Origin: a virus
Taxonomy: Duplodnaviria > Caudoviricetes
Direction: 5' to 3' (one strand)
Length of the DNA stretch: 58,539 bases
IMG/VR virus record: IMGVR_UViG_3300031857_000203
Span: 1 to 58,539 of that record
In this document: piece by piece, positions 2,460 through 58,396 of the stretch
Layout of the letters: each line of letters begins with the position of its first letter
How positions within the stretch are numbered: position 1 is the stretch's first letter
Made by a program: the position numbers and the translations under genes
The notes under the pieces: model-generated
What the model saw: only the letters and a program-made list of their open reading frames with translations
The model's database searches: none
Told to the model about the DNA's origin: nothing

Positions 2460-2687
2460 ATGCTGTACGGATACATCTCCTCCTTCGACCCCGACAGGCC
2501 CGAAACCCCCGAAGAGCTTGAGTTCACTACCATCATCAACGGCACCACTCGCACAGTAGAGTACGACGAAGACGGTGCCTTTATCATCAAGATCAACGGT
2601 AAGACAGCAGAAGACGACATCACTGAAGAACAGTGGAGTAACATTGAACAAATGGTTAACTCCAGACTCAGCAATGACTACGACTAA
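2460..2687 (+). CDS. Hypothetical acidic protein
   Basis: ORF between hairpin and terS. Confidence 0.65.
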   Translation: MLYGYISSFDPDRPETPEELEFTTIINGTTRTVEYDEDGAFIIKINGKTAEDDITEEQWSNIEQMVNSRLSNDYD

Positions 2688-3165
2688 GAAAAAGATCGGC
2701 AGGCCTTCCAAGTACACGCCTGAGCTTGCAGCAGAGATCTGCCAGAGACTCAGCAATGGTGAGCCACTGCGTCAGATATGCAGAGACGATCACATGCCCT
2801 CTTGGGTTGCTGTGTATCAGTGGATGGATCGCGACCAAGAGCTTTCTTTAGCCATCGCACATGCGCGGGAAGCTGGTCAGGACGCTATGGCTGAGAGGGC
2901 CTACGCTGAGATGTACGACGAGCCTGAGCGCATGCTGACTGAGGGCGGCGGCCGCATTGATCCGGGCTATGTCCAGTTGGTAAAGGCTCGGGCGGAGATC
3001 ACGCTGAAGCTGCTAGCTAAATGGAACCCTAAACGCTACGGCGACAGGATCGCTGTTGCGGGTGATGCTGAGTCCCCGATCAAGGTTGAAGCTGAGATCA
3101 AAGCAGACAAGCTGCTGGAGGCTCTGGTGACCAACGCTGAACTGCGCAAGACTGTCGGTGAGTGA
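2674..3165 (+). CDS. terS: Terminase small subunit (Sf6 gp1-like)
   Basis: GRPSKYTPELAAEICQRLSNGEPLRQICRDDHMPS HTH N-terminus; directly upstream of terL. Confidence 0.9.
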   Translation: MTTTKKKIGRPSKYTPELAAEICQRLSNGEPLRQICRDDHMPSWVAVYQWMDRDQELSLAIAHAREAGQDAMAERAYAEMYDEPERMLTEGGGRIDPGYVQLVKARAEITLKLLAKWNPKRYGDRIAVAGDAESPIKVEAEIKADKLLEALVTNAELRKTVGE

Positions 3166-5005: not shown

Positions 5006-8000
5006 ATGGAATTACCCGAGCAGGACAGGCAGGCGCTTATTGAGGCTGCCCGCAGGCGCACTCAACCTCAAGAAGGTGGTGCTGCATTCAAGTACCCCTC
5101 TTCTGGTAAGCGCCCTGAGAAACTGAACGCCTCCCGTGATGTGAACATGCCTGCCCAGATGGCTCGAGGCTGGGTAGCTGGAACTCTGGGGTTGCCTGGG
5201 GACATCGAGGCACTTGGCCGGATGGGGATTAACTTCGCCTTTGGCCGGGGCGGTGTGAATGTTGATGAGACGCCAGTCCTGCCGACTACTGAGTTCTACC
5301 AAGAGTACCTACCTGGGGGCGATGAGAGACCTGCTGCCAAGTTCGCATCGGGCTTAGGAGCGCTTGGTGGGGGCATGGGTAGCACTACCCTAGCCAGAGG
5401 CGCCGTGAAGGGCTCTAAGGCTGTAGGAAGGGCTCTGGGGCCGAAGGCTGCTGAGATGGCAGAGGGCTACCTGCAGAGGAGTGGACTGGCTCCGCAGTTG
5501 ACTGTGTACCACGGTACTCCGCACAAGTTTGCACCCGAAGAGGGCGCTCCTCTGGGAAAATTTAGGTCAGAGAAGATCGGCACTGGCGAAGGTGCTCAGG
5601 CTTATGGGCAAGGGCTCTATACCGCAGAAGCAAAAGAAGTAGGCAGTAGCTATCAAAAATCATTGTCTGATTTTGACATGTTTGTTGACGGCAAGCCATT
5701 TGACAGTGGCAATCCTGCCCATCGTGCGGCGCTTGAGCTTAAGCAAAGCGGAGGCGAGCCTGGACGCCAAGAGTTGATCGAAAAATACAAGCGGCAAATC
5801 GTTGACTTAAAGTCGAGAGATAAAAAGTGGGCAACAGAACTGGCGGCTTCTAAAGAAGCAGAGCTACCTTTTTTGGAGAGTGGCGACCTTCCTGCTTATT
5901 CTGAACAGTCAAGAGGCTATCTTTACACGGCTGATCTGCCTGACGAGATGATCCCGAAGATGCTGGACTGGGATAAGCCGTTGAGCCAGCAGTCTCCAGA
6001 TGTGCAAGAGGCATTACAGAATAGTGGCCTGCTTGTAGATGTGTCAAAAGTTGGAGAAGTAGCTGCTGAAAAGATCCGAAGGCTTGCGGAGCAACCGCGA
6101 GTTGCTGATTGGGCCAAACGAGACTTGTTGCAAACAGCGGCTCAATTAGAAAAGTCGCCATCTCCAAAGCATGTTGCGGGTGTCCTGAAAGGAATGCAAC
6201 TGGAATACGGGATTAACGCAGATTCTGGGCCGTTTTCAGATGTTGCAAATGACTTTCTGTCCTTTGTCAAAGGAATGCAGGCTGTGCCAAACATGGACAC
6301 AGGCGGTGGTGCTGTGTCTTATTTGGAGGCGATGTATGGCCCAGCAAACGCCTCACAAAGACTGAAAGAGGCAGGAATCCCAGGTATTAAATACCTTGAC
6401 GAGCAATCTCGCGGTATGACTGGCACTGGGAAATGGAAGGTGGATTTCAAAGATGGCACTAGCCAAGAGTTCAATTTCAAGCCTAACGATGATGTGCTTG
6501 AGCAGATGGGGGCAACAGCCACTCCCATCGGAACCCGCAACTTCGTGATCTTTCCTGGGGAAGAGCAAAAGCTACGCATCTTGCAACGCAACGAAGAGAA
6601 GCTGCCTGATCCGGCTGGCATGATTAAATCGCTGGAGGAAGAAGCGAAAGCGATAGCGCAAGGAATGCGAAATCGAGCCAAGGCAGATCGAGCCGCAGGA
6701 CTTGATCAAATCAGCGACGAGACGCTGTTGAGGAATAGAGAGGACAGCGACCGCATCCATAAGTTGATGGTTCAAGTTGAAGAGTTGAAGCGTCCGCAAG
6801 TAAAGATTGCTGCAGAAAAGCCAGATCCATCTTGGATGGAGGGTTTGCCTGATGCGCAGCGCAAAACCGTCAAGTCGTTTGATGAGTGGCAAGGTGACCG
6901 TGGCTTTTCATTGCGAAAGCCAGGATCAAATCCAGAGGATGACCTCCATACATCTGCGCAATCAAATTTCACGGACTACGAAGTAGTTCCTAAAGTTAGG
7001 TCGATACCTTTAGACGCTCTTGGTGGGCTTGGTGGTTATGACTCCCCTAAAGAGTTGGCTAGGATTGAGAACTTGGCGCAACAGATTGAAGGCAATAAAG
7101 AAATTACGCCTATCTTTGTCGGAGTTGACGCGACTGGCATGCCGTATGTTATTGAAGGTCAGCATCGCGCAAGAGCCTTTAAGAACTTGGGAATGCAGTC
7201 AATCCCGGCCAAAGTCATCGTTGACATGACACCTGAAATTGGTCGGGCAGAAGGCGGTCTAGTCACAGACACAGACGCTATTGCTGCAAAGCTCAAAGCT
7301 ACAGGCATGGATGATGAGAAGGCATTCATGCAAGCCTTGCGTATGGCAGATGCTAGGCAAGAAGCTCACATGGCAGGCGGTGGTCTGCTGAAGGCGCTGA
7401 AGGGTGCAGCAAAGGCCGAGGATGTTGCGAAGGTCGCAAAGCCTGCCAAGGCTGCGGCAGAGGCTTCTAAGCCAGCAACAAAGGTGGTGTCTGAACCGCA
7501 GGCATTGCAAAAAGCCAAAAAGGCTGGCTATCCAATGGCCCCCAGAAACCGTTGGTATGGAGAGGGAACTTACGACAAATCTGGCGGAAGACTTGAGATG
7601 ATGTCGCCAGATGAGTTTCTGAACAAAGTAAGGCCACTAGAAATTGACGATGCCTCAAGGGATAACATTGATTATTTGAAGCAGCACATTCAATCTGGCG
7701 GTGAACTTGATCCTTTGCTGATCACAAAGAGCGGGAAAGAGGATGGTCGGCATAGGGCTTATGCGGCTAAAGAGCTAGGCATTTCGGAATTGCCTGTCAT
7801 CCGATACGATAAAGAGATCCCTGCTGCGCCACAAGCAGAAGCACTTGAGACTGCCCGCAAGAATGCTGTGAAGATGCTGGGGTTGCCCGAGAACAACACC
7901 GCGATGGATCGGGCAAAGGCGATGGGGTTTGATACGCAGGGCTACAGAGGATCAACGGCGGTTGAAACCACGCATGACAAACCTGTGTGGTGGTCAGAAG

Positions 8001-8464
8001 ACCCAGACTATGCAAACGCGTATGCGGCGCACACGGTCAGGCCGCCTAAAGGACAACCAGACCCATACGCAGGCAACGTAATGCCTTTGCTGGTTAAGGT
8101 TGGAAAGGACAAAACCTTTGAGAAATTCAGTCCTGGCGGCGTGCCGCTTGATCCTTTCTCTGGGTTCAATGAGGGCGTAGAAACCGGCTTGCGTAGATAC
8201 GCCCACAATCAATTTACGGGCGACATGGGCGGCAAGGTCTGGGAGGCTTTGACTGTTCCGAAGAATGTGCGCTCGAGGTTCGCGGCCTTTGACCCTGCCC
8301 GTTCTTCTGAAAATGACTTGCTAGGCGCTGCCGATCCAGCCTTACTTGCTGGTGTTGCAGTGGGTTCTGGGATAGGTATTGATGCTATTAGGCGTCTTAA
8401 AAAAGAAGAGCAGAAGCCTGAAGAGCAGAAAAAAGCCAGAGGTGGCTTAACAAGGCGTGTATGA
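5006..8464 (+). CDS. Large polyvalent protein with two ADP-ribosyltransferase-like and two ParB-like domains
   Basis: VYHGT..GTGEGAQAYGQGLY..GIPGIKY..NFVIF; IEGQHR; EDGRHRAYAAKELG; GYRGST..WWSEDPDYA..GNVMPL..RSRFAAFDP. Confidence 0.7.
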   Translation: MELPEQDRQALIEAARRRTQPQEGGAAFKYPSSGKRPEKLNASRDVNMPAQMARGWVAGTLGLPGDIEALGRMGINFAFGRGGVNVDETPVLPTTEFYQEYLPGGDERPAAKFASGLGALGGGMGSTTLARGAVKGSKAVGRALGPKAAEMAEGYLQRSGLAPQLTVYHGTPHKFAPEEGAPLGKFRSEKIGTGEGAQAYGQGLYTAEAKEVGSSYQKSLSDFDMFVDGKPFDSGNPAHRAALELKQSGGEPGRQELIEKYKRQIVDLKSRDKKWATELAASKEAELPFLESGDLPAYSEQSRGYLYTADLPDEMIPKMLDWDKPLSQQSPDVQEALQNSGLLVDVSKVGEVAAEKIRRLAEQPRVADWAKRDLLQTAAQLEKSPSPKHVAGVLKGMQLEYGINADSGPFSDVANDFLSFVKGMQAVPNMDTGGGAVSYLEAMYGPANASQRLKEAGIPGIKYLDEQSRGMTGTGKWKVDFKDGTSQEFNFKPNDDVLEQMGATATPIGTRNFVIFPGEEQKLRILQRNEEKLPDPAGMIKSLEEEAKAIAQGMRNRAKADRAAGLDQISDETLLRNREDSDRIHKLMVQVEELKRPQVKIAAEKPDPSWMEGLPDAQRKTVKSFDEWQGDRGFSLRKPGSNPEDDLHTSAQSNFTDYEVVPKVRSIPLDALGGLGGYDSPKELARIENLAQQIEGNKEITPIFVGVDATGMPYVIEGQHRARAFKNLGMQSIPAKVIVDMTPEIGRAEGGLVTDTDAIAAKLKATGMDDEKAFMQALRMADARQEAHMAGGGLLKALKGAAKAEDVAKVAKPAKAAAEASKPATKVVSEPQALQKAKKAGYPMAPRNRWYGEGTYDKSGGRLEMMSPDEFLNKVRPLEIDDASRDNIDYLKQHIQSGGELDPLLITKSGKEDGRHRAYAAKELGISELPVIRYDKEIPAAPQAEALETARKNAVKMLGLPENNTAMDRAKAMGFDTQGYRGSTAVETTHDKPVWWSEDPDYANAYAAHTVRPPKGQPDPYAGNVMPLLVKVGKDKTFEKFSPGGVPLDPFSGFNEGVETGLRRYAHNQFTGDMGGKVWEALTVPKNVRSRFAAFDPARSSENDLLGAADPALLAGVAVGSGIGIDAIRRLKKEEQKPEEQKKARGGLTRRV

Positions 8465-8492: not shown

Positions 8493-11036
8493 ATGGCAAC
8501 CGAATTCCCGATTGATCCCGAGTTCAACCGCTTTGTTGGGGGCGAACAGGAAGAGACGCCGGATGAGCCTGTTGAGGTTGAACTAGACCTTGATGAATCC
8601 GAGATTGAAGAGCTTCCTGATGGCTCTGCAATCGTCCGGATGGAAGGCAAAGGTCCGATGGAAGATGAAGACTTCTATCAGAACCTAGCTGACGGCGATG
8701 TAATTGACCATCTTGACCTGAATACGATGGCCTTGCGGTACATCCAACTGGTTGAGAAGGACAAAGAGGCTCGAAAGAAACGGGACGAACAGTACGAAGA
8801 AGGTATCCGCCGTACTGGATTGGGTAATGACGCCCCTGGTGGTGCGCAATTCAACGGGGCTTCTAAGGTTGTCCACCCGGTTATGGCGGAATCCTGCGTG
8901 GATTTCGCTGCTCGGGCGTTCAAAGAACTGTTTCCGCCTGATGGCCCGACCCGTACTCAGATTTTGGGTGATGTGAATGAGGAGAAAGTTGCGATTGCCG
9001 AGCGCAAACGTGACTTTATGAACTGGCAGTTGACCGATCAGATTGAGGAATTTGCTGATGAGCAAGAGCAGATGCTCACTCAGTTGCCTCTTGGTGGCTC
9101 TCAGTACCTGAAACTCTGGTACGACGACAAGAAGAAGCGTCCTTGTGCTCAGTTCCTGCCGATTGACAATGTACTTGTGCCGTTTGCGGCGGGGAGTTTC
9201 CACAATGCCGAGCGTGTAACGGAAGTTGACAACGTCTCCGAATACGAATTCAAGCGTCGAATTGACTCTGGTCTGTACCGAGACGTCAGTTTCATCCGGG
9301 CAACGATGGACCCGGAGCCTACTGGCGCTCAGAAGGCCACCAACAAGATCGAAGGCAAGTCAGAGAACGACAACGAAGACGGTGTCCGCCGCGTGTATCA
9401 CATTTACACATGGCTGGAACTAGAAGACGATCCGATTACGAAGGGTGAGGCAGCCCCGTACATCCTGATGATTGATGACTTGGGCTCAGAGGTCATTGGT
9501 CTGTACCGGAATTGGGAAGAGGGCGACGACACGATGACTAAGCTCGACTGGATTGTCGAGTTCAAGTTCATTCCGTGGCGTGGAGCTTACGGTGTTGGTA
9601 TCCATCACCTCATTGGAAGCCTATCTGCGGCTGCTACAGGCTCTTTGCGGGCCTTGCTGGACTCTGCCCACATCAACAACGCTGCAACGCTCCTGAAGCT
9701 CAAGGGCGCAAAGGTGTCGGGCCAGTCTCAACAGGTTGAAGTGACGCAAGTTGCAGAGATTGAGGCGGCTCCAGGCGTGGATGATGTGCGTAAGCTGGCA
9801 ATGCCGATGCCCTTTAACCCGCCAAGCCCGGTTTTGTTCGAGCTTTTGGGCTGGTTGACGAGTGCTGCCAAGGGTGTGGTGACGACATCGGAAGAAAAGA
9901 TCGCCGATGTCAACGCAAATGCGCCTGTTGGTACGACTCAGGCCCTGATTGAGCAGGGTGCAGCGGTTTTCTCAAGCATTCACGCCCGTTTGCACAAGTC
10001 TCAGGGCCGAGTTCTCAAGATTTTGCAGCGTATCAACCGCTGGTATCTGGATGACATGCGCCGCGGCGAGGTTGTCGAGGATTTGGAGATCAAGAGGGAC
10101 GACTTTGCTCGTTCTACTGACGTTATTCCTGTTTCTGACCCGCATATCTTCTCTGAAACCCAGCGGATGGCTCAGACCCAAGCGGTCATGACCATCATGG
10201 AGAAGAATCCTGACCTGTTTAACCGCAAAGCGGTGGTCATGCGGTTCTTGAAGCAGATCAAGGTGCCCCAGATCAATGAGTTGATGCCTGATACGCCTTC
10301 TCCTGAGAAGCAAGACGCCGCAAACGAGAACGTGGCGATGACTATTGGTCAGACTGCCTATGCGTACCCGGAACAGGACCACCTGGGGCATATCCAGGCG
10401 CACTTGGACTACGCCAAAGATCCGGTGTTTGGTGGGAGCCCGTTGATTGCTCCGAACTACATTCCAAAGGCGATGGAGCACATCAAGCAGCACTTGGCCT
10501 TGTGGTATTTGAACCGCATGAACGGCTACGTGCAGAAGTCTCTGGGTGAGAAGCCCGAAGAGTACGCACTGCTGGCTGATCCGAAGCCTATCGACAAGAT
10601 CATCGGTGTTGCAGCGCAGCATGTGGTGATGGATACGGAGCAGACGCTTGCGGGCATCATGCCGGTTATCCAGCAGATGATGAAGACGATGGAGCAGTTC
10701 AAGCCGAAGCCTGAGATGACTCCGGACGGACAGGTGCTGCTGCAGACCTCTATGGCTGAGACGGAGCGCCGTAAGGCCCGCGATCAGGCAGAGATGCAAC
10801 TGAAGGGACAAGAGTTGGAGTCTGACATCCAGATGCAGATGAAGAAGCTGCAGGACGAGCAGGCTCTGGCTATGGAGGAACTCCAACTGAAGCTGGCCAT
10901 CGCTCAAGGTGATCAGGAGATGAAGGAGCGCATCGAGACGGCCCGTTTGACGCGGGATGCGGCTAGGTTGAGACACGACCAAGACAAGACCGTCATGGAC
11001 TTTTCAACGAAAGGAAACCAGTATGGCTACCAGTGA
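8493..11036 (+). CDS. Portal protein (P22-like) with C-terminal coiled coil
   Basis: 847 aa after terL; VHPVMAESCVDF, YGVGIHHLI, APVGTTQALIEQG motifs. Confidence 0.9.
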   Translation: MATEFPIDPEFNRFVGGEQEETPDEPVEVELDLDESEIEELPDGSAIVRMEGKGPMEDEDFYQNLADGDVIDHLDLNTMALRYIQLVEKDKEARKKRDEQYEEGIRRTGLGNDAPGGAQFNGASKVVHPVMAESCVDFAARAFKELFPPDGPTRTQILGDVNEEKVAIAERKRDFMNWQLTDQIEEFADEQEQMLTQLPLGGSQYLKLWYDDKKKRPCAQFLPIDNVLVPFAAGSFHNAERVTEVDNVSEYEFKRRIDSGLYRDVSFIRATMDPEPTGAQKATNKIEGKSENDNEDGVRRVYHIYTWLELEDDPITKGEAAPYILMIDDLGSEVIGLYRNWEEGDDTMTKLDWIVEFKFIPWRGAYGVGIHHLIGSLSAAATGSLRALLDSAHINNAATLLKLKGAKVSGQSQQVEVTQVAEIEAAPGVDDVRKLAMPMPFNPPSPVLFELLGWLTSAAKGVVTTSEEKIADVNANAPVGTTQALIEQGAAVFSSIHARLHKSQGRVLKILQRINRWYLDDMRRGEVVEDLEIKRDDFARSTDVIPVSDPHIFSETQRMAQTQAVMTIMEKNPDLFNRKAVVMRFLKQIKVPQINELMPDTPSPEKQDAANENVAMTIGQTAYAYPEQDHLGHIQAHLDYAKDPVFGGSPLIAPNYIPKAMEHIKQHLALWYLNRMNGYVQKSLGEKPEEYALLADPKPIDKIIGVAAQHVVMDTEQTLAGIMPVIQQMMKTMEQFKPKPEMTPDGQVLLQTSMAETERRKARDQAEMQLKGQELESDIQMQMKKLQDEQALAMEELQLKLAIAQGDQEMKERIETARLTRDAARLRHDQDKTVMDFSTKGNQYGYQ

Positions 11037-11172: not shown

Positions 11173-11352
11173 GTGGCGACGATATCGGACCTGATCGGCG
11201 GGATAAGGGCACGGCAATCAGAGATTGCTGGATCTCTTGCGGTTGGCAATGCTGCTAACTGGGAGTCTTATCAACGCATGGTCGGGCACTACTCGGGGCT
11301 CAAAGAAGCCCTGGACATATTAGAAAACTTGATGAAGGAAGACGATGAGTAA
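11173..11352 (+). CDS. 59-aa head-module protein (..NWESYQRMVGHYSGLKEAL..), absent from ORF track
   Basis: GTG start directly after upstream stop; overlaps groES start. Confidence 0.7.
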   Translation: MATISDLIGGIRARQSEIAGSLAVGNAANWESYQRMVGHYSGLKEALDILENLMKEDDE

Positions 11353-11779
11353 TCAACCGGAAGCTGCTAACGCGGCTGAGATGGCTTGGGCATTTCCGAG
11401 CGTGGACCCCGGTGCAAAACCTCTAGGTGGGCGTATTCTTGTGCAGTTGCGCCGTACCAAAAAGAAGGCAACAAGTGCCGGGATTATCTTGGTGGAAGAA
11501 ACCAAGGAAACCGAGAAGTGGCAGAACATGGTGGCAAAGGTGATCGAGATCGGTCCCTTGGCATTCAAGCACCGCGACACGATGCTCGCGTGGCCTGAAG
11601 GTTCTTGGTGTGTCGCAGGCGACTACATCCGAGTTCCCAAGTGGGGCGGTGATCGCTGGGAAGTCAAAGTCCCCGGCGACGACGATTTTGAAGATCCCGC
11701 CCTGTTCATGGTGTTGAATGACCATGAAATCATCGCCAAACTCACTGGTAACCCCCTGGCAATGAAGGCTTTCCTATGA
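11345..11779 (+). CDS. groES: Co-chaperonin GroES (Cpn10)-like protein
   Basis: KPLGGRILV..TSAGIIL..VIEIGP..VLNDHEIIA pattern. Confidence 0.88.
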   Translation: MSNQPEAANAAEMAWAFPSVDPGAKPLGGRILVQLRRTKKKATSAGIILVEETKETEKWQNMVAKVIEIGPLAFKHRDTMLAWPEGSWCVAGDYIRVPKWGGDRWEVKVPGDDDFEDPALFMVLNDHEIIAKLTGNPLAMKAFL

Positions 11780-12700: not shown

Positions 12701-13243
12701 ATGGATTCACGTCTGAAAAAGTCTCTGTCTGCCGGTGGCCGCGAAACTCGCGCTAGTGAGGACGTATCCCGTCGAGCCCCAGAGGAAAAGTTCATGTCAG
12801 CGCAGGAACGTCGGAAGATGTGGAGCGATGAGTGGACACAAAGTGCGCTGCCAAAGGTTCCGGAAATGCCCGGATGGCACCTTTGCTGGCTCTCAACCAC
12901 TAATGCTTACGACAGCATTGATAAGCGGATGCGGCTTGGGTACGTTCCCGTGAAAGCGGATGAGTTCCCTGGGTTCGACAATTACCGCGTCAAGGCTGGC
13001 GAGGACATTGGTTTTATCGCATGCAACGAGATGCGCCTGTACAAGATCCCTATGGAGGTCTATCAGGACATCATGCTGCAGATGCACCATGAGATGCCCA
13101 ACGAGGAGGCGGACAAGATCCGTGTCCAAGTTGAGAATCTTCAGGGTGCGCGAGACAGTTCAGGCAAGAGCCTGGGCAAGGTTGAAGGCGAAGGCTTTGG
13201 CGATTTCGACCGAAACGTGCAAACCCCAATCTTTCATGGGTGA
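12701..13243 (+). CDS. Conserved head-module hypothetical protein
   Basis: PGWHLCWLS..RMRLGYVPV; synteny. Confidence 0.7.
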   Translation: MDSRLKKSLSAGGRETRASEDVSRRAPEEKFMSAQERRKMWSDEWTQSALPKVPEMPGWHLCWLSTTNAYDSIDKRMRLGYVPVKADEFPGFDNYRVKAGEDIGFIACNEMRLYKIPMEVYQDIMLQMHHEMPNEEADKIRVQVENLQGARDSSGKSLGKVEGEGFGDFDRNVQTPIFHG

Positions 13244-13260: not shown

Positions 13261-13863
13261 ATGTCTTCGACTAATGCTCCGTTCGGCCTGCGTCCTGCGT
13301 TCCATCCCTCTGGTCTGGATCGCGCTCAGGCGCTGGCTAACGGTATTCAAGCTGTCTCTACGAGCGGCAACGTCTCTGCTGGCTATGCCACGACTATCCT
13401 GAAGGGTCAGCCCGTCAAGATGGACACTGGCGGCTACATCGTGGTTGCCGCTGCTGGCGATTCGTTCCTTGGCGCCTTTGCGGGTGTTGAGTGGACTGAC
13501 TCGACTGGTCGTCGGCGTGTGTCTAACTACTGGCCTGCCAACGAGTCGTTCCAAGTCGGCTCTGTCGTTGCCTATTTCTACAGCGATCCCAACATCGTGT
13601 ACGAAATCCAGGCCGACGGCACTCTGGCGCAAACCTCGCTTGGCGCTGAAGCTGACCTGAGCAACACGACTGCTGGTTCTACGACCACTGGCCTGTCTCA
13701 GTGCACGCTGTCCACCAGTGTTGTGGCTTCGCCCAATACTGCGCAAATGCGTATCGTGGATATCGCCCCGTACCCCGACAATGCTTGGGGAGATGACTAT
13801 GTAATCGTCCGTGCAACCATCGCTGAATTCCAATTCGCGGGTGTTGCTGGTACGGCTGTTTAA
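13261..13863 (+). CDS. Capsid decoration/minor head protein (putative)
   Basis: APFGLRP N-terminus, strong AAGGAG RBS, immediately upstream of MCP. Confidence 0.65.
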   Translation: MSSTNAPFGLRPAFHPSGLDRAQALANGIQAVSTSGNVSAGYATTILKGQPVKMDTGGYIVVAAAGDSFLGAFAGVEWTDSTGRRRVSNYWPANESFQVGSVVAYFYSDPNIVYEIQADGTLAQTSLGAEADLSNTTAGSTTTGLSQCTLSTSVVASPNTAQMRIVDIAPYPDNAWGDDYVIVRATIAEFQFAGVAGTAV

Positions 13864-13878: not shown

Positions 13879-14793
13879 ATGGCAGCCCCGATGCGCAGTA
13901 CCGACTTTCGTTCAATCGTTGAGCCTATCCTCAACGAATGCTTCGATGGCGTGTATGACCAACGTACCGATGAATGGTCGCGTGTTTTCCGCGAGCAACA
14001 AGGTATTCCCCGTAACTACCACGAAGAGCCGGTTCTGTACGGCTTTGGCGCGGCTCCGCAGTTGCCGGACGGCACCCCGGTTTCGTACCAGCAGGGTGGT
14101 GTTCTGTTCCTGAAGCGCTATGTCTACAATGTGTACGGTCTGGCCTTTGCGCTGACCAAGGTGCTCGTTGAAGACGGCGATCACATCCGTATTGGTCAGG
14201 TGTACGCCCGTCACCTTGCCCAGTCGCTGATTGAGACGAAGGAAACGCTGTCGGCCAACGTGCTGAACCGCGCTTTCAATAGCTCGTATCCTGGCGGCGA
14301 CGGTGTGCAGTTGAACAGCGCTTCTCACCCCATCGTGAGCGGCACGTTCTCCAACCTGCTGACGACTGCAGCTAACCTGTCCCAGACCTCTCTGGAGCAG
14401 ATGCTGATTCAGATCCGTCAGGCTGTGGACAACAACGGCAAGAAGATCCGTCTGGTTCCCCGCCAACTGGTGGTGGCTCCTGGCAACGTCTTCCAAGCTG
14501 AAGTGCTGCTGAAGAGCGTTCTGCGTGCTGGTAACGCGAACAACGACATCAACCCGATCAAGTCTATTGGCTTGCTCGACGAGGGTGCCGCTGTTCTGTC
14601 GCGTCTGACCAATGCTTCGGCATGGTGGGTTCAGACCGATGCTCCGGAAGGCATGAAGCTGCTGATGCGCCGCAAGCTGGAGAAGACGATGGAAGGTGAC
14701 TTCGAAACTGACTCGATGCGCTACAAGGCCACCGAGCGTTTCGATGTCGGCTTCACCGATCCTCGGGCCATGTACGGCACTCCTGGCGTCTAA
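13879..14793 (+). CDS. Major capsid protein
   Basis: GGDGVQLNSASHP, PRQLVVAP, RYKATERFDVGFTDPRAMYG; AAGGAGG RBS; downstream hairpin. Confidence 0.9.
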   Translation: MAAPMRSTDFRSIVEPILNECFDGVYDQRTDEWSRVFREQQGIPRNYHEEPVLYGFGAAPQLPDGTPVSYQQGGVLFLKRYVYNVYGLAFALTKVLVEDGDHIRIGQVYARHLAQSLIETKETLSANVLNRAFNSSYPGGDGVQLNSASHPIVSGTFSNLLTTAANLSQTSLEQMLIQIRQAVDNNGKKIRLVPRQLVVAPGNVFQAEVLLKSVLRAGNANNDINPIKSIGLLDEGAAVLSRLTNASAWWVQTDAPEGMKLLMRRKLEKTMEGDFETDSMRYKATERFDVGFTDPRAMYGTPGV

Positions 14794-15300: not shown

Positions 15301-16275
15301 ATGGGCCAATTTAAGCCGATGGTGAAAATGGTCACCACCGAGCCTTCAGTCGAACTGAAGCTCAAGAGTGGCGGCGCGGTGGAGAAGAAGATGCAGATGG
15401 GCGGTGCGCTTGCCGCTGCGCCTGCTGCTGGTCCTGCTATGCGTGCTCCGGCTCGCGGTGGGATGATGCCCGCGGGCGCCCCTGGGAAGCCTTCTATGGC
15501 TGCTCGGCGCCGTGCGATGATGGCCGGTCCTACTGGTGCTGCTCCGGCAGGCCCAGCGGGCATGGCTGGTCGCATGATGAAAGATGGTGGCGAGGCTACT
15601 AGCCTGAAGGCTCACGCCGGCATGCCTGCGTCCAAGGCCCACAAGGGCTTGAAGACGGGTGGTGTGGTGGATGGGCAAGGCGGCTACAAGTCTGGCGGCA
15701 TCATCAAGTCCAAGGTCGGCAAAACCACCAAGATGGACACTGCAAAGCCTGATCACTCACCAGCCAAGACTGGTGATGTGAAGATGGGCAACGCTGGTGG
15801 TTACGCTACTGGTGGCGTGGCGAAGGCAAATGCTGGCGGCTACAAGAAAGGTGGCGCAGCAAAAAAAGCCTACGCCACGGGGGGTCTTGTTGATTCAGGA
15901 CGTCCCGTGGCGATGCCTCAAGGAGCGAAGAAGCCTTCGAAGCCTGTAAGCATCAATCAACTGTCAGGCACCTTCAAAAAGGGTGGGGCGGTGATGATGA
16001 AAGAGGGCGGCAAGGCTGATGTTCCTCCCAAGGGTGTTGAGGATACGATTCAGACTGCACGAAACGAACGGGACTACAGGGCCTGGGAGAAGAGTCAGGT
16101 TGAAGAGAACAAGGCCGCGGCACAAAGCGCTGGCAGCATGTTCTCGTCAATTCCTCGTAAGCTGAAGGAAATCTTCTCGCCAGCTAAGGCGGCTAGTGCG
16201 CCTGGGGCAGTGACAAAGACTGAAAAGTCTGTAACAGTCACTCCAAAGAAGCGCGGCGGGGCCGTTACCTGCTGA
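15301..16275 (+). CDS. Basic low-complexity protein with ~11 [hydrophobic]-K/A-x-GG motifs; probable -1 frameshift isoform
   Basis: LKSGG, MKDGG, YKSGG, YATGG, YKKGG, FKKGG, MKEGG etc.; ends KKRGGAVTC. Confidence 0.85.
   Translation: MGQFKPMVKMVTTEPSVELKLKSGGAVEKKMQMGGALAAAPAAGPAMRAPARGGMMPAGAPGKPSMAARRRAMMAGPTGAAPAGPAGMAGRMMKDGGEATSLKAHAGMPASKAHKGLKTGGVVDGQGGYKSGGIIKSKVGKTTKMDTAKPDHSPAKTGDVKMGNAGGYATGGVAKANAGGYKKGGAAKKAYATGGLVDSGRPVAMPQGAKKPSKPVSINQLSGTFKKGGAVMMKEGGKADVPPKGVEDTIQTARNERDYRAWEKSQVEENKAAAQSAGSMFSSIPRKLKEIFSPAKAASAPGAVTKTEKSVTVTPKKRGGAVTC
15861..15912 (+). promoter_or_regulatory. Programmed -1 ribosomal frameshift signal
   Basis: In-frame A AAA AAA (15861-67), 5-nt spacer, CGCCACGGG (15873-81) pairing with CCCGTGGCG (15904-12); -1 frame reads SLRHGGSC then TGA at 15891-93. 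Confidence 0.75.
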
Positions 16276-16278
16276 ACC

Positions 16279-16302
16279 AAGCGGGGGCTTCGGCCCCCGC
16301 TT
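16279..16302 (+). terminator. Rho-independent terminator-like hairpin
   Basis: AAGCGGGGGC-TTCG-GCCCCCGCTT followed by pyrimidines. Confidence 0.75.
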
Positions 16303-16318
16303 CTCCTTTGAGGCTGCT

Positions 16319-16621
16319 ATGAAGCTGCAAACTGTTTCCAAAACTGGCGTTGGCTCCAGTTCCTCTTTGGTCATGAACACCAACATTTCCCCGTTCAACG
16401 TGGGATTTGGGGTGATCGTGACTGGCACGGTCAACTACACCGTGCAACATACGTTTGACGATCCTGCCGCGGGATTCACAACGTGGTTCTCTCACCCGAC
16501 GATTGCCTCGCTTGCGGCAAATGCTGATGGCAACTATGCGTTCCCAGTGACTGGCATCAAGTTGCTGGTCAATTCTGGGGCTGGTACTGCCACGCTGAAG
16601 CTGATCCAAGCTGGTATCTGA
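16319..16621 (+). CDS. Virion structural protein (putative)
   Basis: Beta-rich 100 aa; GAGG RBS. Confidence 0.7.
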   Translation: MKLQTVSKTGVGSSSSLVMNTNISPFNVGFGVIVTGTVNYTVQHTFDDPAAGFTTWFSHPTIASLAANADGNYAFPVTGIKLLVNSGAGTATLKLIQAGI

Positions 16622-16623
16622 TC

Positions 16624-16860
16624 ATGGCTTACGTTGGGTATACCGACGTTGCAAATCAGGCGAATACGTCTGATGGATTTGCTGCCAATGTCAATGCTGT
16701 CAACGTAGTTGGCGGCGGTGTTGGTGCTGAAGTTGGTGATACGGGCGTAGTTGATCTCTACGGAACTACTCCCGTGGAGACCTTCTACATTGCTGATGAG
16801 ACATCTCCTGGGTATGTACTGCAGGAAGACGACTCAAAGATCATTAGAGAGGCATCGTAA
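16624..16860 (+). CDS. Hypothetical structural protein
   Basis: Tight packing; YVLQEDDSKII C-terminal motif. Confidence 0.65.
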   Translation: MAYVGYTDVANQANTSDGFAANVNAVNVVGGGVGAEVGDTGVVDLYGTTPVETFYIADETSPGYVLQEDDSKIIREAS

Positions 16861-17441
16861 TGGCCGACCAGAAGATTTCAGCGATGCCCTCTGCGGCAAC
16901 GCTAACGGGTGCAGAACTCATTCCGTTGGTGCAGTCTGGCGCAAACGTTCAGGCGACACTCAATACGGTCACTGACTTCGTTCGTGACTCGTATGCCGCG
17001 TTCTCTGACTTTACTGATCAGCCTGCAACGCTTGCCAACACGGCATACGCGATGACGTTCAACACCACTGACTACTCCAGTGGTATCACGTTGGTGTTGA
17101 ACTCTCGGATCACCGCCTCTCAGACTGGTGTGTACAACTTCCAGTGGAGTGGTCAGTTTGAGAACACGCAGTCGCAAGATCATGATGTGCGTGTTTGGAT
17201 CAAGATCAACGGCAACAACGTAACTGGTTCCACCGGATACATCTCTGTGCCGTCATCTCACGGTGGCGTGAATGGTCACATCGTGGTGGGGTGGAACTAC
17301 TACATCACGCTGAATGCTGGAGACTACGTTCAACTGTTCTGGGAAGCAGACAACACCAATGTCTCCCTGCAGACGTATGCCTCTGGAGCGAATTACCCGT
17401 CAACGGCTTCTGTAATTGCAACCATCAACAGGGTGCATTGA
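16860..17441 (+). CDS. Head/tail fibre-like protein with C-terminal C1q/BclA-like domain
   Basis: MADQKISAMP..LVQSG N-terminus; GVYNF..LNAGDYVQLF. Confidence 0.6.
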   Translation: MADQKISAMPSAATLTGAELIPLVQSGANVQATLNTVTDFVRDSYAAFSDFTDQPATLANTAYAMTFNTTDYSSGITLVLNSRITASQTGVYNFQWSGQFENTQSQDHDVRVWIKINGNNVTGSTGYISVPSSHGGVNGHIVVGWNYYITLNAGDYVQLFWEADNTNVSLQTYASGANYPSTASVIATINRVH

Positions 17442-17623
17442 TGCCAGCAAGAAGCAAAGCGCAGTTTCGCCTCATGAAGGCGGCTGAAAACAGCCCTGCA
17501 TTTGCCAAAAAGATGGGCATTAGCCCAATGGCGGCGGGTGAGTTTACTGAAGGCAACATCAAAGGCAAGAAATACGCTAAGTTGCCCGAGAAGAAGCTCA
17601 AACGAGGCGGCTGTTGCTGGTGA
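17441..17623 (+). CDS. Small basic protein (MPARSKAQFRLM..KLKRGGCCW)
   Basis: TGATG coupling; carries the GG motif. Confidence 0.75.
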   Translation: MPARSKAQFRLMKAAENSPAFAKKMGISPMAAGEFTEGNIKGKKYAKLPEKKLKRGGCCW

Positions 17624-17626: not shown

Positions 17627-17875
17627 ATGACAAAAAATGTCAATTTAGCAGTTGGCAGGGGCGAAAAACTGTCAGTTGACCGCGGTGCTGGTCTGACTCA
17701 GAAGGGTCGAGAGAAGTACAACCGCGAGACAGGCAGTAACCTCAAGGCTCCGCAGCCTCAAGGGGGTTTTCGTAGAGACTCGTTCTGCGCGAGAATGGGG
17801 TCTATCGCTGAAAAGAGCGAGAAGGGAAGCCGATCAAGGGCTTCAATGAAGCGTTGGAACTGTCCGGGGTGGTGA
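17627..17875 (+). CDS. Small basic conserved phage protein (DUF6321-like)
   Basis: GLTQKGREKYNRETGSNLKAP..RRDSFCARM..RWNC. Confidence 0.7.
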   Translation: MTKNVNLAVGRGEKLSVDRGAGLTQKGREKYNRETGSNLKAPQPQGGFRRDSFCARMGSIAEKSEKGSRSRASMKRWNCPGW

Positions 17876-20406: not shown

Positions 20407-23400
20407 ATGGCGACACTTTACTGGGGCGGTGGCACGGGAACGTGGGATGGATTCGCCACGACCAATTGGTACACAGACCTCGCCAGAACCGTTTTGTCTA
20501 CCCGTGCTCCGAGCGCTGAAGACGATGTTGTGTTTGATTCGACTTCAAACGCGACGGGGTACACGGTCACGATCTCAAACAACGCATCTGTTTGCCGTGA
20601 CCTCACGATCAGTGGGCCTGCCTCAGGAAACGTTACGGTTGCGGGCAATGGTAACTTGTATATCTATGGCAGTTTGTCTTTGTCTGCGGCAGGGATTACC
20701 AGAACTTTCACGGGTGAGACTTTTTATTATGGCTCTGGAAGTCGTACTATCACAACAAATGGAGTGACACTTGGTTCAAATATCTACTTTAATGGATCAG
20801 GAACATATACTCTTCAAGATGCATTAAATATTGGAGCGGGAGCTGTCAGTATTAACAGCGGAACATTTGATACTGATGGCAAAAATCTTACTTGTGGTGG
20901 CATAACTGCTACTGCAGGGGCAACTGCTGGTATTTTAACTCTTGGTGCATCAACGGTAAGCGCCACGAGTTTTACTCCCAACGCGCCTGTAATTGTAAAT
21001 GCCGGAACCTCAAACATAACTCTATCTGGCACTACGCCAAATATTGGCGGCGGCACCAATTACACAGGCAACACATTCTATAATGTAACATTTAGTTCTA
21101 GCTCACCCACAAGCGGCAATTTTCGAGGCACAAACACATTTAACAACCTTACATTCACTACTCCTACAAATAGTACACTTGTTCCAATTACATTGTTTGG
21201 GAATCAAACTGTAAATGGCACATTGACTGTAGCTGGATCGGGAGCAATCAACAGATACATGTTCTTGTCTGACCCTATTGGGACGACAAGAACACTTACT
21301 GTTGCCACAGTCGGAACTCTGACTGACGTTGATTTCCGAGACATCACGGTAGCTGGGGCATCTTCCCCGTGGTCAGGAACCCGTCTTGGAAATGCTGGTG
21401 GCAACACCAACATCACGTTTGGCGCTGGTGCAACCAAGTATTGGAACCTTGCTGCAGGTGGAGCTTGGACTGCTGCAGCTTGGGCCACAACAAGTGGTGG
21501 CGCGGCAAGTGTCACTAATTTTCCCTTGGCTCAAGACACCGCAATCATTGAGAACACAGGGTTGAATACCAGCGCCTCAATCACGGGCTTTAGCGGATAT
21601 AACCTCAAAACCTTGGATTGCAGCACGCGGTCTAATGCTGCAACTTTATCTGGAATTGAGCCAAGAATAAATGATGATGTGACATTGAGCACATCAATGA
21701 CAGTTTCTAGCTTATCAATTTTGTTTGAGGGCAGAACAACTCAGACTATTACCTCTGCGGGAAGAACATTAGGTGCTATAGCAGTAAATAACTCTGGAAG
21801 CACTGTAACACTTGCGGACGCATATAACGGCAATTTCATTAGTGTTATATCCGGAACATTTGACACCAATAATCAAAACGTAACTGTGTCTGGTCCCTTG
21901 GTTGTAACTGCAAACTCGTTATCAAAAACAATTACGCTTGGCTCAAGCACGGTTTCTTGCACAACGTTCGGCGCTACCGCAACCGGAATAACGAATTTTA
22001 CATTAAATGCAGGCACATCATCAATTACAGCTTCGAGTACTTATGTTGGAGTTGCGGGGGTTTCTTCTACGTTTTACAATGTTACGTCAACATCAACTGG
22101 TGCCGTAACATTAAATGGCACCAACACCTTTAATAACTTGACTTGTACATCTCCTACCGCTACAGGAGTGACTGCAATTACACTAAGTGGAAACCAGACC
22201 ATCAGTGGAACGCTTGCGTTGGCCGGTGGTACATCTGTCACCCAAAGAAGGCAAATAGTAAGTAGTGTGATTGGTATAACGCGCACCATTACTGCTGCAA
22301 CAGTCACCGGCCTGACAGATATTGACTTCCGCGATATCCAAGGTGCTGGCGCAGCTAACTGGACAACAGGCACCAGACTAGGAGATTGTGGGGGCAACAG
22401 CGGCATCACGTTCCCTGCTGCCAAGACAGTTTATTGGAACCTTGCGGGAACACAAAACTGGTCTGCTACAGCATGGGCCACAAGTAGCGGCGGGTCGCCA
22501 GCAGCAAACAACTTCCCTCTGGCACAAGATACGGCCGTTTTTGATGATACGGGTTCTGCTGGAACAATAACGATCAATGCCGCATGGAACATTGGCACTA
22601 TTAGTTCTGGTGGAAGAACTATTGCATGGACTCTTGCTGGGACTTCTTCCCCATCAATTTATGGTGATATTACATATGGTTCAGGAATAACGTCCTCGGC
22701 TACTGGCAGTTTCACATTTAGTGGCGCATCAACACAGACGTTGACTACTGCTGGTAAATCGCTGTCAAGTACCGTAGCAGTTACAAAACCTGCTGGAGTA
22801 GCGCTTAATTTGGGGGACGCTTTATCTTGCTCAGCCGTAAATGTAACTAGCGGGACATTAAATTCACAAAATTACAATATATCAGCTCTTAGTTTTAATT
22901 CCAATAACTCAAACACTAGGTCAATTACGCTAGGGACAAGCACAATTACATTAAATGGTTCTGGTGCCAATACTTGGCAATTGTCAAACACAACAGGACT
23001 CACATTTAGTGGCGCCTCGTCCACGATTAACTTGTCTTCTGCAGCCGCAAAAACATTTGCAGGCGGCGGACAGACATTTGGCACGTTATCTTCTACAGGC
23101 GGAACCACAAGTCCCCTGACAATAAGCGGCAGCAACACGTTTACGACGTTCACAAACACCGCACGGACGTATCTGATCTTTACATCAGGGACAACGCAGA
23201 CGGTTACTAACTTCACTTACTCAGGTGCATCTGGTAGTGTGGTTCGTTGGTACACCAGCATTCCCGGCCAAAGAGCTACGTTAGCTACGACAACCAGTGC
23301 AGTTGGCGCTAACAGCGTAGACGGCGGTAACAACAGTGGATTGACATTCACTGGATCATCGCCTGACTACTTTTATGTGAAAGACATTGCATATGCTGCC

Positions 23401-23442
23401 CTTGCAGGCGGTGCGGCAGGCAAGTTCTTCCTGATGTTTTGA
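20407..23442 (+). CDS. Large beta-solenoid tail fibre/adhesin-like protein, three internal repeats
   Basis: YW..W..P.A.D.(V/A) unit three times; Thr/Gly/Ser/Asn-rich. Confidence 0.75.
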   Translation: MATLYWGGGTGTWDGFATTNWYTDLARTVLSTRAPSAEDDVVFDSTSNATGYTVTISNNASVCRDLTISGPASGNVTVAGNGNLYIYGSLSLSAAGITRTFTGETFYYGSGSRTITTNGVTLGSNIYFNGSGTYTLQDALNIGAGAVSINSGTFDTDGKNLTCGGITATAGATAGILTLGASTVSATSFTPNAPVIVNAGTSNITLSGTTPNIGGGTNYTGNTFYNVTFSSSSPTSGNFRGTNTFNNLTFTTPTNSTLVPITLFGNQTVNGTLTVAGSGAINRYMFLSDPIGTTRTLTVATVGTLTDVDFRDITVAGASSPWSGTRLGNAGGNTNITFGAGATKYWNLAAGGAWTAAAWATTSGGAASVTNFPLAQDTAIIENTGLNTSASITGFSGYNLKTLDCSTRSNAATLSGIEPRINDDVTLSTSMTVSSLSILFEGRTTQTITSAGRTLGAIAVNNSGSTVTLADAYNGNFISVISGTFDTNNQNVTVSGPLVVTANSLSKTITLGSSTVSCTTFGATATGITNFTLNAGTSSITASSTYVGVAGVSSTFYNVTSTSTGAVTLNGTNTFNNLTCTSPTATGVTAITLSGNQTISGTLALAGGTSVTQRRQIVSSVIGITRTITAATVTGLTDIDFRDIQGAGAANWTTGTRLGDCGGNSGITFPAAKTVYWNLAGTQNWSATAWATSSGGSPAANNFPLAQDTAVFDDTGSAGTITINAAWNIGTISSGGRTIAWTLAGTSSPSIYGDITYGSGITSSATGSFTFSGASTQTLTTAGKSLSSTVAVTKPAGVALNLGDALSCSAVNVTSGTLNSQNYNISALSFNSNNSNTRSITLGTSTITLNGSGANTWQLSNTTGLTFSGASSTINLSSAAAKTFAGGGQTFGTLSSTGGTTSPLTISGSNTFTTFTNTARTYLIFTSGTTQTVTNFTYSGASGSVVRWYTSIPGQRATLATTTSAVGANSVDGGNNSGLTFTGSSPDYFYVKDIAYAALAGGAAGKFFLMF

Positions 23443-23447
23443 AAATC

Positions 23448-23918
23448 ATGGAAATCCCTAAGCTCACTCCGGTTGTCCAGTTATGCACCGCTGCGTTTGC
23501 GCTGGCGGTTGGCGGGTTTACCGCTGGGGATAAGTTTGGGTGGTGGTCAACGGAGCGTCCTATTTTGGAGTGGTCGCCTGAGCATTTCAAGATTCAGCCT
23601 GCCAAAATTGGTTCTCCCATAACGGTTCAGGTAGCTCGGATCAAACGGCGTGACGACTGCGCTGTTGAAGGGTTTGTGCCTACGGTGCGTGATGCCTCAG
23701 GGATGATCCATGAAGCAACGCCGAGCATGTCCAAATTTACCGGCCCTGCAAGCCCTGAGGTTGACACATTCACATATCAACTTACCTTGTCGGCCAAAGA
23801 CAAATTTGCGCCTGGGACGGCCACTTTGCTGGCAACGATCACCTACAAGTGCCCCGAGGGGCAGCGAACTGTGACGTACCCGAAGCATAAGAACCTGACC
23901 TTCCTGCTGGAGAAGTAA
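23448..23918 (+). CDS. Membrane-anchored hypothetical protein (lysis cassette)
   Basis: N-terminal hydrophobic helix; adjacent to holin. Confidence 0.6.
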   Translation: MEIPKLTPVVQLCTAAFALAVGGFTAGDKFGWWSTERPILEWSPEHFKIQPAKIGSPITVQVARIKRRDDCAVEGFVPTVRDASGMIHEATPSMSKFTGPASPEVDTFTYQLTLSAKDKFAPGTATLLATITYKCPEGQRTVTYPKHKNLTFLLEK

Positions 23919-53149: not shown

Positions 53150-53242
53150 GAAACCCGGCTAGGTCTGGCTGATCCCCTGACCGAAAAGCGTCACACCTCC
53201 GCCTGCCGTTGGTTTCCTTCAGAGGTGTCGTTAGAGGTGTTC
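53150..53242 (+). ncRNA. Putative cis-regulatory structured RNA (three-way junction, anti-SD loop)
   Basis: GAAACC/GGTTTC, CGGC/GCCG, GGTC/GACC and GCG/CGC stems; loop ACACCTC complementary to two GAGGTGT copies. Confidence 0.6.
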
Positions 53243-57404: not shown

Positions 57405-57415
57405 TCGGGAACCTA

Positions 57416-58387: not shown

Positions 58388-58396
58388 GAAAAGATG

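Follow-up and report, generated by a model that had tools for sequence, protein, structure and literature searches.

Distribution of the motif in the phage record

We analyzed IMG/VR record IMGVR_UViG_3300031857_000203, a complete virus record of 58,539 bp that is referred to in full as the window. It belongs to a podovirus-like phage that is akin to Caulobacter phages RW, RLK, and GB2A (77% identity in the capsid protein) and, more distantly, to Pelagibacter phage HTVC023P, Roseobacter phage CRP-901, and Planktothrix phage Pag-Yong1. The structural genes are all on the plus strand (Table 1). Downstream of the capsid gene lies a gene for a 324-amino-acid (aa) protein that repeats a short motif consisting of a hydrophobic residue (h), K or A, any residue, and two glycines (h-[KA]-x-G-G). 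Copies also occur in a polyvalent protein encoded ahead of the portal, in a small basic protein, and in a giant protein. A reading made from the sequence alone had called this a genome-wide tag and had proposed a system for addressing cargo to the virion or for processing it. The observation is confirmed and is stronger than first described, and to it we add the doublet form of the motif, a gene split at the motif (17441-17623 and 17627-17875), and a link between the C-terminal GPGDG module of the giant protein and tape measure proteins.

For counting, we defined the strict pattern as [FYLM]-[KA]-x-G-G and used residue shuffles of each protein as controls. Greedy calling of open reading frames (ORFs) in the window gave the 324-aa protein, the giant protein, and 72 others; the 60-aa ORF at 17441-17623 fell outside this set, displaced by a longer overlapping frame, and was examined separately. 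Every copy named in the sequence-only reading is present in the sequence. The 324-aa protein has nine strict copies (LKSGG at residue 21, MKDGG at 93, LKTGG at 117, YKSGG at 129, YATGG at 168 and 191, YKKGG at 181, FKKGG at 225, and MKEGG at 233) and two loose ones (MQMGG at 31 and KKRGG at 316). Only 0.26 strict copies are expected by shuffling, and none of 2000 shuffles reached nine. The giant protein carries four copies versus 0.50 expected (P of about 0.0015 by shuffling), and the 72 remaining ORFs combined carry eight versus 3.2 expected. Among the latter, the A-type matches in 20407-23442 and 23439-23918 look like chance. The signal is confined to four proteins of the window, so that "genome-wide" was an overstatement. 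Three copies had been assigned to the polyvalent protein; MAGGG at residue 789 is strict, whereas RAEGG at 746 and KARGG at 1143 match only loosely. The motif had not been noticed in the capsid protein or the scaffold and is indeed absent from both, and the portal and tail genes are likewise motif-free. The codons of the G-G pairs vary between the window copies, and such differences point to selection on the protein.

Table 1. Structural genes and motif-bearing elements of the window
Feature	Position	Strand	Remarks
Small terminase	2575-3165	+	
Large terminase	3158-4576	+	
Polyvalent protein, 1152 aa	5006-8464	+	Two ParB_N-like domains (662-744, 884-943); between large terminase and portal
Linker module, aa 742-801 of polyvalent protein	7229-7408	+	RAEGGLV, ~35 aa, HMAGGGLL; directly 3′ of first ParB_N-like domain
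C-terminal tail KKARGGLTRRV of polyvalent protein	8429-8461	+	KARGG 1143, 5 residues before C terminus
Portal	8493-11036	+	
GroES-like co-chaperonin	11345-11779	+	Cpn10, E 3.5e-6
Scaffold-like protein, 306 aa	11776-12696	+	0 motif copies; receptor candidate only
Two small conserved head-module proteins	12701-13243 and 13261-13863	+	
Major capsid protein	13879-14793	+	PF25209, E 2.7e-11; 0 motif copies; receptor candidate only
T/A/G/V-rich protein, 149 aa	Between capsid gene and 15301-16275	+	
Multi-motif protein, 324 aa	15301-16275	+	11 copies of h-[KA]-x-G-G
Small basic protein, 60 aa	17441-17623	+	Upstream half of split gene
DUF6321 protein, 82 aa	17627-17875	+	PF19846, E 8.4e-15; downstream half of split gene
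Adaptor-like, tail, and lysis genes	3′ of the small proteins ending at 17875	+	
Giant protein, 3264 aa	34742-44536	+	
FKAGG (aa 3138) and YAKGG (aa 3157) of giant protein	44153-44224	+	Just 5′ of C-terminal module
GPGDGQSDDIPAMLADGEFV.. module, aa 3183-3232 of giant protein	44288-44437	+	Tape measure type

The multi-motif protein family

The 324-aa protein is basic (isoelectric point [pI] of 10.3; 54 K and R versus 21 D and E residues) and rich in A (16%), G (16%), and K (13%). Its N terminus, MGQFKPMVKM, is invariant or nearly so in its family, and it ends in KKRGGAVTC. AlphaFold2 (48 sequences) returned a mean predicted local distance difference test (pLDDT) score of 52.5, with 187 of the 324 residues below 50, and placed helices only at residues 66 to 74 and 247 to 292, leaving every motif stretch unstructured. 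As the protein is mostly disordered in the model, the copies are short linear motifs and not a folded repeat; a beta-roll-like glycine repeat, which we had considered, is rejected on the basis of the same model. The earlier description of a basic low-complexity protein that could serve as a multivalent hub agrees with these results. The protein matched no Pfam or PHROG family, its family has no relative among PDB sequences, ESM Atlas returned only unnamed viral clusters, and a cluster look-up for a family name gave only "hypothetical protein."

Relatives of the protein are numerous. Matches at E values of up to 1e-3 were obtained for at least 5021 metagenomic proteins (8000 candidates scored), and an exhaustive profile search yielded 471 clusters at 50% identity, of which 181 had E values of up to 1e-30. 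IMG/VR holds 562 confirmed places with the family, 80 of which we fetched as loci for comparison (given L numbers here), and among deposited phage genomes, the protein was found only in MW202545, an uncultured freshwater phage. In the loci used to compare the capsid proteins (from L003 to L079), the multi-motif protein is 46 to 92% identical to that of the window, and the scaffold-like protein is 41 to 90% identical.

In alignments of 18 and 48 family members, the G-G pairs are invariant or nearly so, and the segments between them are variable, with long insertions. The enrichment seen in the window extends to the relatives, with 1338 copies in 148 family representatives versus 42.8 expected (median, 9 per protein; range, 4 to 14). 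The reversed motif was found 121 times versus 43.7 expected (2.8-fold), and three shifted registers were 0.7- to 1.7-fold enriched; the h-x-[KA]-G-G register was 15-fold enriched because K-K-G-G copies satisfy both patterns. The composition of the 324-aa protein could in principle produce the motif as a by-product of G/A/K-rich low complexity. However, the shuffles keep this composition and still fall far short of the observed counts in both the window and the family, the G-G positions are invariant across the family, and the reversed and shifted controls stay near the background. Chance is excluded by the shuffle and register controls, and as an explanation we give it practically no weight.

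The motif is also more extended than first described. A sequence logo built on 57 distinct members (890 G-G sites) shows Y, M, L, or F at position −3 (68%) and K or A at position −2 (70%), and on the C-terminal side, V or A is found at +2 and K at +3. The resulting consensus is [Y/F/L/M]-[K/A]-x-G-G-x-[V/L/A]-(K), and it frequently forms a doublet, G-G-x-V-K-M-x-x-G-G. V, L, I, A, or M stands two positions past G-G in 1077 of the 1338 copies (12.1 expected), and the doublet pattern G-G-x-[VILA]-x(0-3)-M-x(1-2)-G-G occurs 119 times in 79 of the 148 representatives (3.06 expected). G-G, a few residues, and a Cys form the C-terminal ending of 91 of the 148 representatives. Conserved C-terminal Cys or Trp endings occur in three motif-linked families (G-G-x-x-x-C; ..GGCCW or ..GGGSCW; and ..RWNCPGW or ..RWKC in DUF6321); disulfide formation and metal binding are guesses at their role.

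Polyvalent proteins upstream of the portal

When the multi-motif family is set aside, the 812 distinct proteins of the 80 loci contain 140 copies versus 43.5 expected. This excess falls in two classes, a long ORF ahead of the portal and a small modular protein. The motif is present in 24 of the 26 distinct pre-portal ORFs of at least 400 aa (54 copies in total). Pfam searches with the pre-portal proteins of 10 relatives found ART-PolyVal, PcfJ, ParB_N, DUF3990, and DUF7178 domains in 7 of them, and the mosaic structure was visible by BLAST. The pre-portal proteins are genuine polyvalent proteins, in which several unrelated domains (ART-PolyVal, PcfJ, and ParB_N among them) follow one another in mosaic order. 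Polyvalent proteins have been proposed to be packaged and injected, and a zincin-like metallopeptidase has been proposed to process them (Iyer et al. 2017, PMC5512222); in contrast, no such domain was found in the proteins studied here. The words "glycine" and "linker" are absent from the main text of PMC5512222, and a junction motif is not described there.

The G-G sites sit just outside the recognized domains. In locus L016, ART-PolyVal (residues 258 to 387) lies between AKGGEVKMAGGG (from 209) and AHGGLAHMSGGG (from 400), with G-G doublets at 209 to 217 and 400 to 408. In L058, ParB_N (424 to 484) is followed by ASGGEVKMAGGG at 488, with G-G at 488 and 495. An exception to this placement is LKKGG at residue 675 of the L050 protein, which lies inside the ART domain. 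Doublets are concentrated in this class: 12 of the 26 pre-portal proteins carry 15 between them (0.14 expected), versus 3 in the 786 other proteins of the loci (0.8 expected). The doublet of the window's polyvalent protein is a stretched form that begins with RAEGG 746, six residues past the first ParB_N-like domain. The linker module that contains it is 85 to 89% identical at the protein level to L006 and L007 and 93% identical at the DNA level over 155 to 157 nt, and the domains that flank it in these two loci are unrelated to those of the window.

One explanation for such linkers is that they are hinges and recombination junctions: conserved linkers would let cassettes be swapped by homologous recombination and would flex during unfolding for ejection, and no reader of the motif would be needed. 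The nearly identical DNA of linker residues 749 to 800 between unrelated flanks is consistent with this explanation, as is the strong mosaicism of the polyvalent and small proteins, in which each observed junction carries the motif. Variable toxin domains are preceded by demarcating motifs in CdiA (VENN) and Rhs proteins. However, codons differ between copies and selection is on the protein, and G-G is invariant at about 11 positions in the 324-aa protein, which has no cassettes to swap. A plain hinge also leaves the conserved hydrophobic residue, K/A, V, the doublet Met, and the strong directionality unexplained. We consider this explanation improbable, and it can be combined with either binding or cleavage at the motif.

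The polyvalent proteins show a related feature at their C termini. A basic residue followed by G-G occurs within the last 30 residues of 19 of the 26 distinct pre-portal proteins, typically in a short, hydrophobic tail of the form KKKGG-x-V..G-L-S-A-L-R-K (for example, KKKGGLAALRK, ..GGLSALRK, and KKKGGAVGGLSAVEKV), of which the window tail KKARGGLTRRV is a shortened version. The motif had been placed at domain edges from the window alone, which the relatives bear out, and it also lies at C termini. The window's polyvalent protein as a whole is acidic to neutral (pI of 6.1).

The head module is common to phages RLK, HTVC023P, and CRP-901, none of which has the multi-motif protein or a pre-portal polyvalent protein. 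Pag-Yong1 has no polyvalent protein either; it encodes a 308-aa protein with two copies near the C terminus (YAKGGAV and YASGGMI) and an 83-aa protein with one copy. The multi-motif gene and the pre-portal polyvalent gene tend to go together, in what are few independent comparisons.

Residues 1 to 660 of the window's polyvalent protein (5006-6990) matched no family above the threshold and are 30% identical to the protein of L023, which has a weak DUF3990 match. The pair ..VYHGT.. / ..GQGLYTAE.. in this N-terminal part may correspond to ADP-ribosyltransferase motifs, which it resembles. The portals of some relatives (among L044, L050, L062, L056, L010, and L012) end in ..SKQGGPYGYQ or ..TKLGGSGGYQQ; the window portal ends in ..STKGNQYGYQ, without G-G.

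A small modular protein is split at the motif

The other enriched class consists of proteins of 127 to 222 aa encoded downstream of the multi-motif gene. Their modules, an N-terminal MPxKSxAQ domain, optional middle modules, and a C-terminal DUF6321, are joined by M-K-x-G-G or a similar sequence. A DUF6321 ORF is present in 58 loci. By pattern search, the two end domains are fused in 33 of these and split in one (L021), and the other 24 loci have a different N-terminal module, a stand-alone DUF6321, or an MPxKSxAQ-type N terminus that falls outside the search pattern (for example, L013 and L016).

In the window and in L006, the small modular protein is encoded by two genes. The 60-aa product of the upstream gene has an N-terminal MPxxSKAQ-type domain and ends in LKRGGCCW, i.e., the motif LKRGG, CCW, and the stop codon. 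It matches phrog_16759, phrog_25121, and phrog_22033, the last two of which are annotated as "virion structural protein." The label DUF3008 for the MPxxSKAQ domain was not adopted, as no Pfam family was found for this ORF. The downstream product matches DUF6321 with 55.6 bits (gathering cutoff, 28.5) and begins with MTKNVNLAVGRGEK where fused relatives read ..KKMKSGGVSLAVGRGEK or ..MKSGGVSLAVGRGEK. The gene break lies three residues past G-G, and the upstream half retains LKRGG and three further residues at its new C terminus, as seen in the window, L006, and L021, a more distant locus. Both small partners are basic (pI of 10.2 and 10.7).

The giant protein and tape measure proteins

In the 3264-aa giant protein, FKAGG 3138 and YAKGG 3157 precede GPGDGQSDDIPAML at residue 3183. 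The last 150 residues are conserved in 66 further distinct relatives, which have three G-G sites before GPGDGQSDDIPAMLADGEFV, namely, FKAGG, YAKGG, and a third G-G between them. The C-terminal module matches tape measure PHROGs (E value of 1.4e-5), the tape measure proteins of Arthrobacter phages (by tblastn), the homologous protein of Caulobacter phage RLK, and, in two copies, the tape measure protein gp16 of mycobacteriophage Douge (PDB accession 8zdo; E value of 1.6e-5). It has the form GxGxGxSDxIxAxLSxGE(F/Y)V that is found at the C termini of tape measure or ejection proteins. Apart from the match to 8zdo, searches of the giant protein against PDB sequences returned nothing. AlphaFold2 modeled its last 147 residues (34 sequences) with low confidence (mean pLDDT score of 53.4). 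With its likeness to G-x-S-D..D-G-E-x-V, the GPGDG module would be a speculative candidate for an S24-like (LexA/UmuD) autoprotease, for which no supporting family or PDB match was found.

The giant protein shares with tape measure proteins not only the GPGxGxSDxIxAxLSxGE(F/Y)V module but also an adjoining h-A-x-G-G. The latter appears as YANGGFLSGAGTGRSD in Douge, as KFATGG after the module in Auxilium, as MARGGYAV ahead of the module in RLK gp066 (which has RYMDGGRV at its very end), and as YAEGGAL in Pag-Yong1. The motif is older and wider than this phage group and is also present in tail-resident proteins. The GPGxGxSD module may be a separate unit that happens to contain the same short motif. 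According to PMC13033339, the module is unresolved in the Douge structure, where the tape measure protein is modeled only at residues 1658 to 1699; the same text cites earlier work in which tape measure proteins touch DNA in the tail tube or connector.

These contacts are relevant to a further explanation, in which the motif would be a histone-tail-like DNA binder (K-G-G-K type). Condensing or escorting the packaged DNA would be the task of the 324-aa protein, and cargo would be tethered to that DNA by the linkers and so leave together with the genome. Such a role is consistent with the charge (pI of 10.3) and disorder of the 324-aa protein, with the basic small partners, and with the DNA contacts of tape measure proteins cited in PMC13033339. 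A conserved aromatic or hydrophobic residue and the doublet Met are unexpected for purely electrostatic binding, however, and the polyvalent protein is not basic overall. Furthermore, the 324-aa protein matched no DNA-binding family in Pfam, PHROG, PDB, or ESM Atlas. We hold this explanation to be very improbable.

Tandem repeats are present in the giant gene at 39899-40199 and 43056-43641 (12-nt period and 30-nt multiples), and the second set encodes T/V/D/P/N-rich repeats such as TTVDPNAGVQ.

Glycine pairs as possible cleavage sites

The placement of the motif between modules also fits a processing role, which the sequence-only reading had given as its alternative. A protease would cut at or after G-G and free the modules of the polyvalent and small proteins, and the 324-aa protein would be chopped into about a dozen short basic peptides, in a manner resembling the action of the adenovirus protease on core precursors or the processing of T4 internal proteins. 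Several observations favor this main rival to the docking reading set out below. The motif lies just outside polyvalent domains (ART-PolyVal in L016 and ParB_N in L058) and separates all modules of the small protein, and since the window and L006 encode two of these modules as separate genes, the modules need not stay joined. G-G ahead of the scissile bond is usual for the adenovirus protease as described in PMC4246237, which gives the substrate Met-Arg-Gly-Gly, the site IVGL|G, and the cofactor peptide pVIc (GVQSLKRRRCF). The likeness covers hydrophobic, x, G-G-type sites in basic DNA-associated internal proteins, and the G-G..Cys ends of the family representatives recall pVIc, a short C-terminal fragment with a conserved Cys.

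The differences from the adenovirus system are nevertheless considerable. Adenovirus is a eukaryotic virus of another capsid lineage. The hydrophobic residue of the motif, at −3 of the first G, corresponds, if the cut follows G-G, to P5 and not P4, one position farther from G-G than in the adenain-type consensus (M/L/I)-x-G-G|x, which has G at P2 and P1 (compare PMC4246237). The sequence past G-G is conserved here, and the searches revealed neither a clan CE peptidase nor any other. For cutting, one of two sites 7 residues apart would be superfluous, cuts at the C-terminal copies would take off only 2 to 11 residues, and tape measure proteins, which also carry the motif, are out of a head protease's reach.

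The earlier remark that no protease gene could be recognized agrees with our searches. Pfam and PHROG scans of most window ORFs of at least about 130 aa, and of several smaller ones, revealed no peptidase family, and Pfam found no peptidase domain in the polyvalent proteins of 10 relatives. No cognate cysteine protease of the adenain type was found in the ORFs scanned, where remote homologues are possible. The two small head-module proteins were considered as hidden proteases and rejected, as an alignment with five relatives showed no conserved Ser, Cys, or His. A remote or new protease, or a host enzyme, may be the cutter, and should the motif be cut, the protease responsible has yet to be found.

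The head module itself looks scaffold-driven, which also argues against a processing role. The 306-aa protein looks scaffold-like, with an acidic N terminus and a charged middle that appears helical by eye. ESM Atlas placed it with unnamed viral clusters and gave a weak Phage-scaffold lead (PF09306; 0.88, 18% of members). Its matches among PDB sequences were at chance level only (E values of 0.28 or worse), and the 200-aa protein had no match there. Taken together, we regard cleavage as an unlikely, although serious, explanation.

A proposed incorporation or docking signal for internal proteins

The motif is directional, conserved, located in disordered sequence at module boundaries and C-terminal tails, and limited to the protein classes described above. 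The earlier proposal of one short linear motif common to otherwise unrelated proteins holds, and judging by family and gene position, these proteins are probably virion internal. The reading that we rank first, tentatively and at somewhat less than even chances, is that the motif is an incorporation or docking (retention) signal for internal proteins, similar to the targeting peptides of encapsulins. It ranks first because conservation extends to the residues before and after G-G, doublets occur often, the tails are kept, and no protease was seen. Such two-sided conservation is more in keeping with a peptide that is bound than with a site recognized mainly from its nonprime side, and two sites 7 residues apart, redundant for cleavage, are natural for a clip. 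The motif tail also keeps its place at the C terminus irrespective of the adjoining domain or gene split, which is the position of encapsulin targeting peptides.

Under this docking reading, a short strand with flexible flanking glycines would dock on a component of the assembling head (the capsid interior, the scaffold, or the portal). The carriers would be the polyvalent effector, the small modular protein, the giant ejection- or tape-measure-like protein, and the 324-aa protein. Mosaic effector cassettes would be loaded regardless of the domains they carry, and the 324-aa protein would act as a multivalent adaptor or filler at the same docking site. A more far-reaching version, which we consider speculative and not likely, is a cargo-loading code of the phage's own. 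Here, an HK97-fold head would read the strand or clip, a cassette between two clips would be packaged and injected, and the disordered hub with its ~11 clips would set the amount of cargo. If true, encapsulin targeting peptides would have their first counterpart in a phage, with a portable tag for loading foreign proteins into heads.

The T4 capsid targeting sequence is likewise short and transferable, and unrelated proteins that carry it are loaded into the prohead. It lies at the N terminus, spans about 10 residues, and binds the scaffolding core, and the prohead protease gp21 removes it. Unlike the T4 signal, the motif described here is internal or C terminal and repeated, and no prohead protease was recognized; an N-terminal signal removed by such a protease is not what we found. 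The encapsulin arrangement is the closest known analogue. In PMC8346489, cargo of Family 1 has the consensus SDGSLGIGSLKRS, and Family 2B cargo has GPTGLGTSAAR between domains and again at the C terminus. Both systems have a short glycine-containing motif at the C terminus or in disordered linkers of unrelated cargo, as well as a shell of the HK97 fold. The motif here differs in sequence, belongs to a DNA-filled phage head, occurs in up to 14 copies per protein, and would bind the capsid only by analogy. In addition, PMC8346489 states that an N-terminal helix, missing from most phage capsid proteins, is used in the encapsulin pocket.

Several points weigh against a docking signal. We identified no receptor, and both that the motif is bound rather than cut and what it would be bound by are what we infer. 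A complex prediction for the capsid protein with residues 160 to 240 of the multi-motif protein, in a run without controls, scored 0.00 against a mark of 0.32 and carries no weight in either direction. Virion presence is judged from gene position, the polyvalent family (PMC5512222), and "virion structural protein" labels, which are those of depositors on phage 121Q gp51 and of PHROGs that share only the N-terminal domain. Docking is supported by the joint absence of the multi-motif protein and a pre-portal polyvalent protein from RLK, HTVC023P, and CRP-901 and by the presence of the motif in 24 of 26 pre-portal proteins of loci carrying the multi-motif gene. The ORF sets of the loci came from a crude greedy caller, and many pre-portal ORFs are truncated at the locus boundary. 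The stand-alone DUF6321 protein of the window is motif-free and would be unaddressed if the motif were the sole label. A nearly cargo-free protein made of address labels requires an extra assumption, and the placement at every boundary and the natural gene split suit polyprotein cleavage equally well. Finally, the motif flanks the GPGxGxSD module in siphovirus tape measure proteins; as these reside in the tail, docking in the capsid interior cannot be its sole role. The common denominator of the carriers may instead be passage through the tail channel.

Literature searches on motif strings, ejection proteins, and capsid targeting returned no description of the motif or the family among the matches listed, and a search on HTVC023P structural proteins gave nothing useful. 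As far as we found, the motif is previously undescribed; it would be a targeting or junction motif of packaged proteins. How proteins are chosen for packing beside the DNA is understood in only a few model phages, and polyvalent effectors are widespread, with their loading and processing remaining an open question. Here, one sequence rule ties together an unannotated disordered family, the boundaries and tails of polyvalent proteins, and a small protein that is split or fused, and the motif offers a direct experimental handle. Should it prove to be a loading tag, phage heads could be engineered with its help into protein carriers.

Other features of the record

The major capsid protein is unusually conserved, with a mean column identity of 95% in 24 relatives. 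A GroES-like gene is annotated at the same position of the head module in HTVC023P, CRP-901, Pag-Yong1, and MW202545. A 687-aa protein without a family (29437-31500) contains five copies of a 129-nt (43-aa) repeat at 29712-30512 that are 66 to 75% identical. The early or replication region encodes a PAPS-reductase-like protein (54590-55432; E value of 1.4e-6) and a DUF1376 protein (53225-54013; E value of 2e-23).

The ends of the record, 1-2135 and 56017-58456, repeat each other imperfectly in three blocks that are 88%, 99%, and 92% identical at a spacing of 56.0 to 56.6 kb, with paralogous small ORFs. One possibility is a terminal repeat whose copies in the assembly stem from two strain variants; another is a genuine diverged duplication. 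In the related Caulobacter phage RLK, the annotated terminal repeats are identical and 2.9 kb long.

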